From contig CAZYBC010000006.1 of NCBI GenBank assembly GCA_964645645.1, forward strand, positions 1 through 63,224: DNA of 63,224 nt, given 5' to 3'. The notes under the pieces were generated by a model, which was not told the origin of the DNA, ran no database searches, and worked only from the letters and a program-made list of their open reading frames with translations. The translations under genes and the position numbers were made by a program. This DNA comes from an uncultured Pseudomonadales bacterium (GTDB taxonomy: Bacteria; Patescibacteriota; Microgenomatia; UBA1400; PJMF01). This document shows, piece by piece, positions 34,237-40,200 of the stretch (the first letter of the stretch is position 1; the number at the start of each line of letters is the position of its first letter).

Positions 34237-37200
34237 TTAACGATAAAGACTTCTCATAGCAGCTATATAAGAATTTTCAGGATCAAACATTAAAGCAATT
34301 TGATAATATTCCTCTGCTTTATCAAAATTTTCTTCTTCTTGATGAGTACGACCCAGGTGGGTATAAAAAGCCGCTAAAAAACCATCTTCAGGTGTCATAA
34401 AATGAATATTTTGCCTCGCTTCTTGATAGCTTGGTTCTAAAAATCCTAAATGATCAGTTTCATTAACAAAATCTAAAGCTGTTTTAATTGATTCAATAGA
34501 ATATTTACTAAAAAAATCATTGTTGGGAACATTATCATTAGTAGCCTTAGTTAAACTATATCTATCTGCTGTTCTTGGATCGTAAACATTTATTTGATTT
34601 ATTGAAGCATCGTTATATAAAGCAGAAAGATGAAATCCTGACAAAGCAGTTCTTATCTGATTTCTATCTTTACCCAAATTATATAAAACTGAAATTGCAT
34701 AAGCTGTTTGAGCAATACAGTCATATTCATTACTCTCTGAAGGCTGTAAAAAAGAGTAATGAGGATGCTTAACATATGAATAATCACCTGAAGGAAATGT
34801 TAAAACATTTTGTCTTAATAATTGAAAAATTAAATCTTCTCTTTCTCTTTTAACTAATGGACTTTCATCTTTTTCTAAATCTTTTATTCTTTCTCTAGCT
34901 TGATTAATTTCTTCTACTCCACTAGGATTTAATCTTTGATAAGCAGTTTGTAAAGCATGATAAGTAACTAATCTCATTAATTCTTTTTCAGGATTTTCTG
35001 CCTCTATTGAAAAAATCTCTTCATTCCCAATTTTAGGCATTAATTCTGCTAAAATCTCTTTTGCTGGTTTTGATGAATCAAAATCTAAATCTTCCACTCC
35101 TAAAACATTAACTAATTCTGTTAGTTGTTCTGCAAAAGTTGGTTGAAATTGTTCTAAAACACCAGTTTCCTTATTTTCTTCTATTTTACTTTCCGTTTCA
35201 CTTCTTCTCTGCCAATCTTCTACACTGCCAATCGTAGAATAATTAAAGAAAACAAAACTATCGGCCTTAATCATACCTTCAATATCTGTTGGTTCCTGAG
35301 AGATTAAACCATCAAAGCCTAAATTTTTCATGAATTCAGCAAAATAAAAATTTTGTGATGAGCCTAATCCAACTTCCATATTATATTCAGGGATAAATCT
35401 GGTAGCTAAAACATAGTGAATTTGTCTATTCTCTTGATCTGGTTCTTTGGCAGCAATTGCTACTAAAAAATCGTAATATCTTTTCTCAAATTCAAACATC
35501 ATTTCTTCTATACCGTCTGGTTTAGAAATAGCCTCATATTGAGCTTTTTTCTGTGCAAACTTAGCTTGCATAAATTCTACCCAAGCTTTAAATAAAGGTT
35601 CTGGGAGAGACTGGCCATTACGTAAATCTAGCATTTTGGCTTGATAAGGCACTAAAGTGGTTAATACTCCAGTTTCTGTTTGAAGATTTTGTTTAGCTCG
35701 TAAATTAGCATATTCTTCTGCTAAAGCATGATTATCTGTAGTATAAAGTCCCGCTCCAATAGTATATGAACCATCTGGAGCATCTTCATCTGCAAAAAAA
35801 TCATAATTTTCATCTACTATTAATTTTTTACTAGCACCATGATAAAGCTTAAAAAGCTGATCTAAATTTTCAGCTGTAATTTGACTAGGATCAGTTTTAC
35901 CCAAAACGAGAGCTTCAATTTCTTGATCTCCAATTTTGATCTTAGTAGAACTAACTTCTTCTGTTATTGACGTTTCACCAGTTTCTTCCTCTTCTTCTGG
36001 CCTCACCAACCTGCTTACATCACCACTAATTCTTTTTACATATAGAGCAATTTCTTCTAATTGAATATTGATTCTTTCAAATACGCCGGCCAACCTGTTG
36101 GATGGTTTAACTTGCAAAGCTTCTAACTCAGCGGAAATGAGCTTGAGTTCATTTTTTAGAGTAGTTAAATCTGTAATAGCTTGGTTTTGAGCGGAATCTT
36201 GGGCAGCAGTAATTTGACTGATAGCTTGATCAATGGTTTGGAAGGCTTCAGCCATTTCAGCGATGGCTTGGGCTTTTTCAGCCTCGGTTTTTTTGAGCAT
36301 GGCATCGGCAGTTTCGGCTAAGGCGTCTAAAGTTTCTTGAGCAGGAGCGTTGTCAAAAGTATGATCATTAGCCATATTTTTAAGCACGGCAACTTGAGCT
36401 TGAGCAGTTTGGTTGAGAGCTTGCAAGTCGGCTTTATCGGCTTCAACAGAAATTGTATTTGCTAATGATTGAGCGATAAAAAAACTAGTAAATTCAGTAT
36501 TAAATTCACCAAAGGCTATTGGGCAGCTACTACAGCCTTTGGTGTTGTAGGAGCCGGTGCCGGAAAAATTTAAGGTTACATCTTCTAAACTTACTTTATT
36601 ACCATCAATTTTAATTTTAAAATATTGATTAATTATTTTAATTACATCACCATTCTTAATTTCTACACTACCATAAACTCTTTGACCACTTGGATTCTGG
36701 ACATTATAAAGAAAAGTACCATTGGTAGAAGTATCTACTAAAAACCATTGGCCCTGTGAATTATTAGAAATCTTAGCATGTCTACTAGAAACTCTTTCAT
36801 CATTAATCTGATAATTTCTTAGACCTCCATCTCCTCTACCAATAGTAATAGTTGTAGGAGTAAAGGTAGGCTGAGCTGCTTGCGCTTGAGGAGATTGAGC
36901 TGCAGATTGGCTGTAACCACTGGGCTGCTGGCTGGCTGGCTGTTCACCAGCATAAATAGTTTCTTTAACAATATCTCCTTTTCCACCATAATGCTCACCC
37001 ATACCTCGGTCAATGTTAATTACGCGGCCATCGTGATAAATAGGCTGACTCTTCCCTAATTTTTGATTATGACCATGATAAATTCTGTTTTGACCTTTAT
37101 TAGCAGCCGTAGCAAAAAGCTCTAAATATAAGTCTGTTGTTTCTGGATTATTCAAAAACTGGCTATCTTTCTTATCTAAAGTTAATATATCAAATAAACG

Positions 37201-40200
37201 GAAAATACTATTTAAATCATTATTTCTAACAGCAGTTTGAACATAATTTTTCATATTACTATTAATACGCTCAACCACTTGTTGAGGAGTTAATTGATCA
37301 TTCTGAACTCTTTGTAAGATCATATCTAGATGTTGTTTAGTTTCTTCTACATCTGCTAGTTTTTCCCAACCAATACCAGAAATTAAATCAGGATAAATAA
37401 AATCGGCATAAGAAAACACATCGCTATGTTGCATTACTGAGCCATCTACTCGCAAAGCCATCCAATCTAAATTTTGTAAAATTTCCCAAACTTGAGGATC
37501 TTTTTTAGCTTCTACAACTTCATCCATATCCACTCCATTGTGCGCTAATGCTTGAAGTAAACGAAAATCCTCATTTTCATCTAATAGCATAGCTAATAAA
37601 AATTCTACTTCATGATTGCCGCCCAACATATTAAATTCAACACCTACCATCTTACTGGCTTGTTGTTTAAGCTTCCAAAGCAGTTTAATAATATCAATAC
37701 CAGGAGTTTTTTCTCTATCATTTCTATTTCTATCAAAGTAGTCACCGGTAAAACTAATTGAATTAGCATTTCCCAAAACATTTAACTGCCATTCATCTTC
37801 AAAATTCAATGAAGATTTAGCAGGATCTTTACCTGTGAATAATTTGATAAAGAAATTAAAAATTCTAGCAAAAAATCCTGGTTTTTCAGTTTGACCAATA
37901 AATTCAATCCAACCACTTTCTTGAAGTAATTTAACTAAACGATTTTTGTTTGAATGTACATCTCCCACCATCACTGAATTAACAGTTCTGGTTTGATTAC
38001 TAACAGATTGTCCAGATGATGGAGCTACTTGTTGAGCAGCCTGTTGGACTTTAGCTTGAGTTAAAAGTTTGTTAACAATATTTTGTAATTCAGTTGGCAG
38101 ATTTTGCACTAAACCGTTGTCCAATGAGCTGACTAAATAGCTAGATGTTAATATGGTTGCTCGAGGAGTTAAAGCATCTGAAGGATAATATAAAATTGGC
38201 GATTGATTAAAAATATTTCTTAGTTCAGCTAATGTTTTTGCATTCACTGCCTTAAGATATAAATCATTAATATTACGTTGGTACCTGTCTCTTATAATTG
38301 ATAAAACCTTATTTTTTATAGCAGCTATTCTTAAATTATTGAGAATTACATCAACTTGATTGTAATCATCAGTATTCCAGGCTGCTCTCAAATCTATTAG
38401 AGATTGTTTTTCTGCTTTTAATTCTTCTGATGTATAAAAAGTTTCATCATCAAGGAAGATATCTTCATTTTCATAACGTGTCAGGAAATCCAATAAACCT
38501 TGAACGTTTTGCGCATTATTAATTTCGTTAATGGGGCGACGATAAAGGCTCCCAGATAAATTTAAAATTCTTTCAATCTGAGTCATCAGTAGAGAAAAAT
38601 TAAATCTCACATCTGTTCCTTCTAAGGTTTGAGCATCAAAATTACCAAATCTAAAACCATTAATTGTATTCCAAATTTCTCTTAATTGGTCCAGAGTAGT
38701 GGAAGAATGACTAATCAGAGGCATCAAATTAGCAAAAATTGGCAACTTATTAAGTTTATCTATGTAACTAGCTCTTTCTTCAGCTTCCTCAGCTAAAAGC
38801 TTTTTTGCTAAATCGCGGATACCATATGATTCTAATAATCTGTCTGCTTTAATCTTTCCTTCAACAAATTCTCTAACATCATCTACCATATCTCTAGTTT
38901 CTTCGTATTTAGACATCAGCTCAATTAATTCATCTAAGTTCCTGGCTTTATATAAAGTAGATTTAATAGCATCCTCTGCTTTCTTTATTTGAGTATAAAA
39001 ATCAGTACTTGGTTGACTTGATGCAGTGCTATTGTGTTTTCTTAGATAAGCTTCCGGATTTTTAAAATATTCTTCCAAATCAATCAAGGCTCGATTTAAC
39101 AGTTTAGTAGCAGCCGCTAAATTAGCCAAAAGTGCTTGCATTTCTAAATTAGTTTTTTTATCAAATAAATAGGCTGTTCCTAACATTTCATAATTATCTG
39201 GATGAACTGGATTAAGGAGTGCTCTCTTTGCGGCAGTAAAATCTGTCTGTTCCGAGTCTCTGGTTAAACCAAACATCTTTAAATAATCATCTATGGTCAA
39301 ATCTTGGTTACTAGCTAAAACTTCTAACTGAGCAGCTGTAGTTTCACTAGACAAATTTAATCTTAATAAAAACTTACTATAAGCTGTTTGCGCTTGCTGA
39401 TATTTTTCAGCAGCTTTTCTAGCTTGCTCAGATTTTCTCAAATCTAATAATGCTTGAACTTTTTCTCTTAAAGCACTCAAGGGAATTTTGTCAGCTGGAA
39501 TAACTTGATTGACATTTTCAAAATCAATTCTGTCTAGCCAACTTACAACCGTATCAGCTCCAACAATCTGATTATTATCTGTTAACCAACTTTTCTGATT
39601 AGGAGGATTTTGAGCTAAAGTTTTCAATTCAGCTACTTTAGTTTCTGGCTTAATCTCTAAGCGGTTAATGAGTTGCTCTTGTTGCTGGCGATAATCTGCG
39701 TAGAAAGCTTCTGCCTTAGTGGCGTTTGCTTGTTTACGTTGGGCTAAAGCAATTGCAACTAACTGCTGACCGGCTGCTCGAATAGGGGCGTAGTTTGGCC
39801 AATCGGCTAAAGTGGCACTCACGTCTTCATCAAATTCTTTGTTATTTAGGGAGCTTAAAGTATCATCAACATTATCAATAAATTTAAATAAATTAACAAA
39901 TTCAATTTGATTTGTGGCTGGATTCACCAGCATCCAATAATTGTTGCCATAACTAAAATTCTTTTCTAATCGAGTGTGTAAATCTTCTAAACTTTCGGCT
40001 TGAGTAAGAATTTCCGTAAATCTTTGATTAGCAATGCCTGGGGTGACTGATTCTGGTAAAACTTTAAATGTTTCTGTTACCTTTTGGCTTAAACTTAATT
40101 CACTAGCCGTCCAGACATTAACTAAGCCAGTTAGGAAATTAACTTGATCAATGTTAGCTACAAATTGTTCTATAGCATTTAAGCCTGGAATAACTTTTAA

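Follow-up and report, generated by a model that had tools for sequence, protein, structure and literature searches.

A phosphatase and an FHA domain inside a giant protein of Microgenomates-group Patescibacteria: a candidate FHA-targeted phosphoprotein phosphatase

The 63,224-nucleotide (nt) contig CAZYBC010000006.1 (assembly GCA_964645645.1), analysed here over its whole length and called the window, carries on its minus strand a single open reading frame (ORF) of 6,618 codons, 34237..54093, that houses a phosphatase followed by a forkhead-associated (FHA) domain. What would a phosphatase and a predicted reader of phosphothreonine (pThr) do side by side in so large a protein, and in which cell would they act? 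A preliminary description of this DNA had proposed a PPP-family metallophosphatase with a complete motif set and a canonical FHA domain, had suggested that the pair targets Ser/Thr-kinase signalling and had seen in it a possible hint at the identity of a host. We report here that the phosphatase belongs to a rare PPP clade, free of Cys and bearing insertions, which is restricted to a few giant proteins of ultra-small bacteria and recurrently combined there with FHA.

The phosphatase and FHA domains

The domain pair and its motifs map as follows, with the basis of each assignment (aa, amino acids).

34237..54093 (-): giant ORF, 6,618 aa; open reading frame that encloses all the domains below
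36952..37986 (-): predicted Shewanella-like (Shelph-type) PPP metallophosphatase domain, aa 5370-5714; profile, AlphaFold, Foldseek and the ratio of nonsynonymous to synonymous rates (dN/dS)
37951..37965 (-): PPP motif I GDVHS, aa 5377-5381, with metal ligands D5378 and H5380; D and H invariant in 7- and 60-sequence alignments
37726..37746 (-): PPP motif II GDYFDRN, aa 5450-5456, with bridging ligand D5451, D5454 and R5455; 60-sequence alignment
37609..37620 (-): PPP motif III GNHE, aa 5492-5495, with N5493 and H5494; invariant column
37420..37431 (-): QHSD, aa 5555-5558, with the downstream metal-binding H5556; H and D columns invariant
37066..37077 (-): HGHN, aa 5673-5676, with the metal-binding H5675 of its GH; H column invariant
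37003..37017 (-): NIDRG, a variant of the bacterial (I/L/V)D(S/T)G motif, IDRG being aa 5694-5697; D column invariant
37096..37419 (-): helical insertion between QHSD and HGHN, ~aa 5559-5666; model helices at high predicted local distance difference test score (pLDDT), and alignment
36850..36951 (-): flexible Q/P/A/S-rich linker, aa 5715-5748, ~30 residues; translation, and poor pLDDT in the last part of the model
36634..36849 (-): FHA core, aa 5749-5820; Pfam PF00498, NCBIfam and PDB matches
36559-36873 (-): whole FHA beta-sandwich, probably aa 5741-5845; wider extent around the core
FHA motifs (-): IGR, aa 5751-5753; VSSRHA, aa 5768-5773; DTSTNGT, aa 5787-5793; translation
36523..36534 (-): CSSC motif, C5854 and C5857 (aa 5854-5857); translation

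Taken alone, the phosphatase segment scored 19.5-21.2 bits against Pfam Metallophos (PF00149), under the cut-off of 21.5, and it gave no match in a phmmer search of the PDB; a word-indexed homologue search with the PPP-FHA segment likewise returned no match. Among 1.84 billion representatives, searched exhaustively with phmmer, only eight proteins were found at E < 1e-3: the window protein itself, a second giant (P0002, E 3e-18), five phosphatases that stand alone (~260-280 aa) and one unrelated repeat protein. All seven members of the alignment built around the domain match Pfam Metallophos at E <= 0.1 (best 2.2e-17), the phosphatase of P0002 reaching 31.6 bits. Against the PDB, the seven-sequence profile gave a full-length match to the Shewanella cold-active protein-tyrosine phosphatase (PPI/CAPTPase; 2Z72/2ZBM/1V73) at E 8e-30, followed by the PnkP phosphatase domain, ApaH, Rhizobiales-like phosphatase 2, and then PP2A/PP1, WipB and lambda phosphatase. 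A profile restricted to the four giant-embedded domains described below also placed the Shewanella enzyme first (E 8e-5), with WipB second.

Structure prediction led to the same group of enzymes. AlphaFold, supplied with the 60-sequence alignment, modelled the phosphatase at a pLDDT of 83.1 and a predicted TM-score (pTM) of 0.84; a single-sequence model of aa 5362-5870 (pLDDT 35) was not used. Foldseek matched the model in the PDB to 1V73/2ZBM/2Z72, WipB, ApaH, PP5, PnkP, lambda phosphatase and WipA, all with probability 1.00, and TM-scores were low (~0.4-0.5) because of the large insertions. Nearly all of the 36 PDB structures found at E <= 1e-3 are PPP enzymes or related metallophosphoesterases, and the model has the calcineurin-like alpha/beta sandwich.

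The quoted motifs occupy invariant or almost invariant positions in the 60-sequence alignment, and ten aligned columns are invariant (D5378, H5380, D5451, D5454, R5455, N5493, H5494, H5556, H5675 and D5695), which make up the full set of PPP metal ligands together with the catalytic His and the phosphate-binding Arg. Each of the PPP signatures was identified, GDxHG and GDxxDRG as well as GNH(E/D), and so were the two downstream metal-binding His, with the qualification that motif I ends in Ser (GDVHS, not GDxHG) and motif II in Asn (GDYFDRN, not ...DRG). The two motifs are 73 aa apart, a spacing that includes an insertion of ~31 aa private to the window protein. In bacterial PPPs, (I/L/V)D(S/T)G replaces the SAPNY motif, and its S/T position varies in Shelphs too (PMC535813); here the motif reads IDRG, keeping Asp and Gly, with Arg at the S/T position. 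The complete motif set proposed for a PPP metallophosphatase in the preliminary description was thus confirmed, with every quoted motif in its place and with invariant columns, profile and model in agreement.

As to class, the signature motifs, the IDRG sequence, the retained second Asp of GDxxDRG and the first rank of the Shewanella enzyme by both profile and structure argue for a bacterial-type PPP that, by best match, is predicted to lie closest to the Shewanella-like (Shelph) group and not to be ApaH-like. ApaH lacks the second Asp of GDxxDRG (PMC535813). An assignment to the ApaH / Ap4A hydrolase class was disfavoured, as this residue is kept here (GDYFDR) and ApaH is only a lower-ranked match. 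Membership in the Wip effector family (NF043030, T4SS_Wip) was rejected at 27.6 bits against a cut-off of 300, over the N-terminal half only.

The FHA domain was detected by Pfam (PF00498, aa 5749-5820) at E 2.3e-13, with 50.8 bits against a cut-off of 20.7, and the FHA-containing NCBIfam families TagH and FhaB/FipA matched at 1e-10 to 1e-9. Its best solved relatives are Arabidopsis 1UHT and then the FHA domain of KAPP, 1MZK (E 1.2e-3). In characterised FHA domains, pThr is bound by Gly-Arg, Ser-x-x-His and Asn-Gly. All three are present, as G5752/R5753, S5769/H5772 and N5791/G5792, and align with the same residues of 1UHT and 1MZK. The domain is canonical, with its predicted pThr-binding residues intact, and the earlier assignment of such a domain behind a Q/P/A linker, inside the giant protein, was borne out by the Pfam match and the placement of IGR, VSSRHA and DTSTNGT. 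The CSSC motif noted at the same time is present downstream but is not conserved, P0002 having no Cys there. Apart from its two cysteines, a single Cys (C6459) lies beyond aa 1300, and so close a spacing is improbable by chance.

Sequences from elsewhere cover the module. An independent wastewater run contains a 2,354-nt contig identical to the window over 36298-38651, which covers both domains, and a run of another study contains a 2,082-nt contig with a 96%-identical, in-frame variant over 36092-38170 whose sole indel is a 3-nt insertion. An assembly artefact or frameshift was ruled out by these independent contigs and by the length of the variant's lone indel. Five studies contributed the runs with this sequence, all of them wastewater metagenomes; no RNA run containing the region was found. 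The exact 6,618-aa protein is present in a public protein collection as a singleton cluster with NCBI as its source.

Nei-Gojobori counts between the window and the natural 96% variant, a single pairwise comparison with small counts, gave a dN/dS of 0.17 for the whole phosphatase (20 synonymous and 15 nonsynonymous changes) and of 0.14 for its catalytic core, and the variant touches no catalytic motif. The value was 0.54 for the FHA domain, on nine changes only, and ~1.0 for the 143 residues after it. The phosphatase is under purifying selection, and the counts argue against a decayed domain.

The pairing in related giant proteins

Only three other giant ORFs were found to contain this type of phosphatase. 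P0002 is a 4,366-aa partial 'FHA domain-containing protein' from a Patescibacteria single-cell genome. The other two came from a scan of one genome per species, and their ORFs extend beyond the retrieved 17-21 kb on either side: L002 (CAYMYO010000005.1), of at least 5,641 aa, is from a metagenome-assembled genome (MAG) labelled Gammaproteobacteria, a label that may be wrong, and L004, of at least 6,933 aa, is from Candidatus Gottesmanbacteria. A scan of JGI metagenomes with the giants-only profile found only stand-alone or unrelated small phosphatases.

GDYFDR and QHSD are identical in all four giant-embedded domains. L002 and L004 have GDYFDR, GNHEV, QHSD and GHN/GHS together with the same clade-specific insertions as the window protein. 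The helical stretch inserted between QHSD and HGHN (L[TS]xx[QD]...RINxNI) is common to P0002, L002 and L004, whereas it is absent or shorter in stand-alone relatives. The four domains have no Cys at all, compared with 1-12 Cys in each of the 58 stand-alone homologues of the alignment (58/58).

When the window protein was compared with P0002 by BLASTP and phmmer, the phosphatase (E 3.6e-31) and FHA (E 2.8e-4) were the sole segments to align. Their order is swapped: the FHA of P0002 lies ~400 residues upstream of the phosphatase, that of the window protein directly downstream. In L002, FHA lies ~1,500 residues downstream of the PPP domain, is fused straight to PP2C (fragment aa ~5156-5473) and has Gly-His in place of Gly-Arg. 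No FHA was found within the 6,933 residues available of L004, and none of the 120 stand-alone relatives listed carries one. Because of this absence from the listed stand-alone relatives, the swapped order in P0002 and the distant FHA in L002, we conclude that the combination of FHA with this PPP type is specific to the giants, and that the pairing survived rearrangement while adjacency did not. Since nothing else stays recognisable between these few giants, phosphatase and FHA look like a conserved signalling core.

A different kind of PPP was seen in Candidatus Omnitrophota MAG STF1_189, where two contig ends (L008 1-2167 and L009 3445-10614) carry a near-identical large ORF of at least 2,390 aa with a more ordinary bacterial PPP (IPDVHGD / GDYFDRG / GNHD / IHAG / GHT). 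PPP domains thus occur in large Omnitrophota proteins as well.

Architecture, setting and proposed function

Beyond the module, the giant protein is divided as follows.

53920..53976 (-): N-terminal membrane anchor, aa 40-58; hydropathy 2.53, with a K/R-rich 37-aa segment before it
50434..53916 (-): Cys-rich presumed ectodomain, aa 60-1220, with 84 of the protein's 91 Cys; Cys count
50347..50403 (-): second hydrophobic segment, aa 1231-1249, at the start of a Gly/Ala-rich region extending to ~aa 1500; hydropathy 2.13
34240..50346 (-): Cys-depleted tail, aa 1250-6618, with P-loop-like motifs, weak HD, PPP, FHA and TPR; Cys count, Pfam and PDB

In the hydropathy plot, the anchor lies behind a basic N-terminus, and nothing comparably hydrophobic follows the segment at aa 1231-1249. 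The first 1,260 residues contain 86 Cys, C1285 and C1297 being set aside from this count, and the remaining 5,358 only five; the Cys content of the window's other ORFs is 0.69%. P0002 and the L002 fragment have the same Cys-rich N-terminal block and the same Cys split, and P0002 has a region analogous to the Gly/Ala-rich one.

Walker A/B-like motifs (TAGGKS at aa 2048 and VYVDELQ at aa 2161; 47593-47952, (-), aa 2048-2167) follow in the tail. In each of the four giants, a Walker A (GxGKS) and a DExx motif stand ~110-160 aa apart shortly past the hydrophobic region (P0002 aa ~1968, L002 fragment aa ~1998, L004 fragment aa ~1332). GFTGTP(E/D) and IGR(D/A)R, which recall SecA/SF2 motors, are present as well in L002 and L004. 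The P-loop region could not be confirmed as a SecA_DEAD/SF2 helicase, as Pfam gave only a weak ResIII match (E 0.0025), to L002 and not to the window protein, and a four-sequence profile of the region had no match in the PDB.

Elsewhere in the tail, PDB searches of aa 1900-2800 and 3300-3850 gave no match, and the only PDB match within aa 5870-6618 is a C-terminal TPR that matches consensus TPRs. A weak HD match, below the cut-off (E 0.011), at aa 3401-3472 (43678-43893, (-)) has an H...HD pattern (SDHGNNH ... LLHDMGY), and this stretch may be a second phosphohydrolase. The sequence AEQ(P/I)(G/D)TGG(A/T)TQEEV occurs three times in acidic linkers, at aa 3072, 3176 and 3921 (44854-44892, 44542-44580 and 42307-42345, respectively, (-)), and P0002 has a divergent copy, TGRGGTTEDI, at aa ~3229; such TGG-TTQEEV motifs could be processing sites of the double-glycine type or a docking motif. 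Weak matches to DUF3990 (E 0.052) and HTH_37 (E 0.0019, below the cut-off) were also recorded.

The window further encodes GroEL, TsaC/TsaE, TsaD, cytidylate kinase (Cmk), two class A penicillin-binding proteins (PBPs), a class II ribonucleotide reductase with NrdR, MurJ, LepA, PilN, PilO, TspO and two tRNA-Met. GroEL is 84-86% identical to proteins of Candidatus Pacebacteria, a Microgenomates bacterium and Candidatus Woesebacteria, and on this basis the window is a cellular chromosome fragment of Microgenomates-group Patescibacteria (candidate phyla radiation, CPR), not a virus. Upstream of the giant gene on the same strand lie pilN, pilO and a gene for a Pur_ac_phosph_N/Big_13 surface protein (54100-59347 (-)), the stop codon of the latter being 6 nt away. 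The contig of P0002 (L001 1026-6263) has the same pilN-pilO-Big_13, MurJ and LepA neighbourhood, with the giant gene on the opposite side. Cell-wall genes are found within 45 kb, namely those for class A PBPs at 17383-19803 (-) and 27220-29925 (+), a GH18 chitinase-like protein at 29930-31171 and MurJ, a density that is notable for a small genome. An AbiEii-type nucleotidyltransferase toxin gene (302-931 (-)) adjoins divergent tRNA-Met genes at 1212-1281 (-) and 1524-1598 (+).

That the window is instead a phage or mobile element, with the module as a host take-over function, is hardly credible. It could draw on the earlier wording, 'hint at the host', and on the AbiEii toxin gene at the far left end, but housekeeping genes flank the giant gene on both sides, GroEL has the Patescibacteria identity given above, the flanks show synteny with a chromosome from another Patescibacteria cell, and a tblastn search of the module against 50,697 phage records gave no match. 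Because the window is cellular and has no phage match, 'host' can only mean the partner of an episymbiont. The suggestion that the module may hint at the identity of the host found no support: nothing on this fragment of a Patescibacteria chromosome identifies a partner. On simple topology the module would lie in the cytoplasm of the bacterium itself.

We lean, with slightly better than even confidence, towards an FHA-targeted phosphoprotein phosphatase that would act like plant KAPP. The FHA domain would dock on a pThr of a Ser/Thr kinase or of a kinase substrate, and the tethered two-metal PPP would then strip phosphate from the docked protein or its neighbours; this would be the logic of KAPP (FHA plus PP2C) with PPP as the catalytic domain instead. 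That FHA accompanies this PPP in two of the three related giants, one of which adds PP2C beside FHA, favours a phosphoprotein context, and from its domain content a pair that targets Ser/Thr-kinase signalling, as first described, is plausible. As there is one strong transmembrane segment after the ectodomain and none afterwards, the simplest placement of the near-Cys-free tail of ~5,300 residues would be the bacterium's own cytoplasm, where the tail would couple surface events (host contact; the gene stands beside pilN/pilO) to phospho-signalling. The Walker A/B-like motifs soon after the transmembrane segment in all four giants imply a compartment that contains ATP. Described giants of ultra-small bacteria in which transmembrane anchors precede ATPase domains (10.1101/2023.11.21.568195) also favour the producer's cytoplasm. 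Own cytoplasm and host cell are both candidate compartments, and the substrate may be a protein or belong to another class.

Several observations weigh against an FHA-targeted phosphatase in the cytoplasm of its producer. The FHA domain evolves fast between strains (six nonsynonymous to three synonymous changes). Its position varies among the giants and L004 is without it in the residues seen, so the architecture does not require direct cooperation of the two domains. The window encodes no Ser/Thr kinase. The nearest solved relative, Shewanella CAPTPase, is Tyr-specific, and the specificity of bacterial PPPs is unpredictable from sequence (PMC535813). The topology comes from a hydropathy plot only, and the extreme Cys depletion of the tail, enzyme domains included, is atypical of an ordinary cytoplasmic protein.

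Some of these observations would fit two domains that work separately, the PPP on a non-protein or phosphotyrosine substrate, like Shewanella CAPTPase, PnkP or ApaH, and the FHA as an assembly or scaffold module of the TagH, YscD or EssC/EccC-like kind that would recruit partners to the giant. Besides the Tyr specificity of the nearest solved enzyme, ApaH and the PnkP phosphatase are among the other close folds, the FHA proteins that match best in NCBIfam are those of secretion systems (TagH, with a weak Yop-YscD_cpl match), spacing and order of FHA and PPP vary, with no FHA in the residues of L004 seen, and the FHA of L002 is joined to PP2C, not to PPP. We nevertheless consider separate work of the domains unlikely: motif II retains the second Asp, which ApaH has lost (PMC535813), FHA is found in three of the four proteins that have this rare PPP type as against 0/120 stand-alone relatives listed, and in the window protein only ~30 residues separate the two domains. 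Still further down the scale, and very improbable, is a dead or vestigial phosphatase that serves as a mere structural spacer in a fast-evolving surface protein. The Pfam score slightly under the gathering threshold, the non-canonical terminal residues of motifs I and II and the large insertions might be taken that way, but four deeply diverged giants all keep the metal ligands, the catalytic His and the phosphate-binding Arg, the catalytic core has a dN/dS of ~0.14 and the fold model is confident.

The Cys depletion also bears on a delivered effector, possible in our view though doubtful, in which the exported tail or fragments of it would enter a host or prey cell, the FHA would find pThr marks of the host's Ser/Thr-kinase signalling, for alarm or growth, and the phosphatase would erase them. 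Such an effector would share its biochemistry with the FHA-targeted phosphatase that we prefer and differ from it in compartment and target alone. Five Cys in 5,358 residues correspond to P < ~1e-11 at the 0.69% background, P0002 and L002 are depleted likewise, and 0 Cys in the four giant PPPs against 1-12 in the 58 stand-alone homologues would be expected of chains that cross membranes unfolded. The Gly/Ala-rich amphipathic boundary region, ~250 aa long, exceeds a simple anchor; divergence outside PPP and FHA is extreme, with a dN/dS of ~1 after FHA, as in arms-race proteins; and WipB and WipA, both Legionella effectors, are among the solved relatives. According to a preprint, detection of a Saccharibacteria epibiont by its Actinobacteria host runs through a Ser/Thr kinase, whose phosphorylation target is an FHA protein (PMC13622651), and this sensing of epibionts from host kinase through pThr to FHA would make a combined pThr eraser and reader a logical counter-measure. 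Against delivery, no apparatus that could secrete or inject a protein of this kind is known, and none was seen in the window; hydropathy topology puts the tail inside the producer, whose own cytoplasm the Walker A/B motifs fit equally, and the Wip resemblance is weak (27.6 bits versus 300). The published host pathway belongs to a different CPR class and host, and no processing protease or cleavage evidence was found. A more specific version, quite improbable as a whole, is that PPP and FHA (with PP2C in some lineages) would be the conserved payload of hyper-divergent, Cys-purged CPR giants, of which the head would bind the host, the Gly/Ala region would insert in a membrane, and the tail, or fragments cut at the recurring TGG-TTQEEV sites, would enter the host and erase the pThr alarm by which it senses epibionts. 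If true, this would be the first anti-defence effector proposed for CPR bacteria.

The FHA-targeted phosphatase that we prefer would matter in either compartment. Giant proteins of ultra-small symbionts are almost wholly unannotated and too fast-evolving to align, and PPP plus FHA provides an assayable handle on them. With the module in the symbiont, the protein would be a giant phosphatase of receptor-like character that relays host contact into signalling, and this in organisms whose known regulators are very few. Placed in the host, the module would tie in directly with the recently described kinase/FHA pathway by which Actinobacteria detect epibionts, a sensible link drawn by analogy to another lineage.

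Comparison with known systems

Like Shewanella CAPTPase (1V73, 2Z72, 2ZBM), the window domain has all PPP metal ligands, insertions after GNHE and the bacterial xDxG motif instead of SAPNY (PMC535813). It differs in standing at residue ~5,370 of a giant, in being Cys-free and fused to FHA, and in its insertions, one of ~31 aa between motifs I and II and a helical one of ~100 aa before HGHN; the TM-score is ~0.5 and identity ~15%.

Its closest relatives outside the giants are stand-alone metallophosphoesterases of ~260 aa (P0003-P0127) from Chloroflexota, Actinomycetota and Deinococcus, at phmmer E 4e-6 to 3e-4 and 25-29% identity. They share the series GDxHG / GDxxDRG / GNH[DE] / QHxD / HGHT / xVDG. 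In contrast to the giants, they are single-domain proteins that match Pfam PF00149 only (PF06874 in a few) and have no FHA, 1-12 Cys and none of the giant insertions.

WipA and WipB, Legionella Dot/Icm proteins, act in the cytoplasm of another organism. They resemble the window domain as bacterial phosphatases of the PPP fold with insertions, WipB ranks third among the Foldseek matches, and the NCBIfam T4SS_Wip (type IV secretion system, T4SS) match has an E of 1.4e-6. The Wip proteins are without FHA, however, and no T4SS is evident here.

As a whole, the protein resembles the giants described in ultra-small bacteria (Omnitrophota and CPR), which have transmembrane anchors followed by ATPase domains (West-Roberts et al., 10.1101/2023.11.21.568195). 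Common to both are a length of several thousand residues, a bacterium with a small genome, a membrane anchor and then ATPase-like motifs, very fast divergence and a sequence that is mostly unannotatable. That preprint stresses carbohydrate-active and adhesion domains; 'phosphatase' occurs in its text only within 'fructose 1,6-bisphosphatase', and FHA is absent from it (10.1101/2023.11.21.568195).

Plant KAPP (FHA/KI plus PP2C) is eukaryotic, of ordinary size, and catalyses by PPM/PP2C rather than PPP. The Pfam scan of the window protein gave no PP2C match, and the likeness to KAPP is functional only, although L002 does have an FHA-PP2C fusion. What KAPP and the window protein would have in common is a pThr reader and a protein phosphatase in one polypeptide, and with it the proposed working principle: the PPP-FHA pair would mirror the logic of KAPP with a different catalytic fold.

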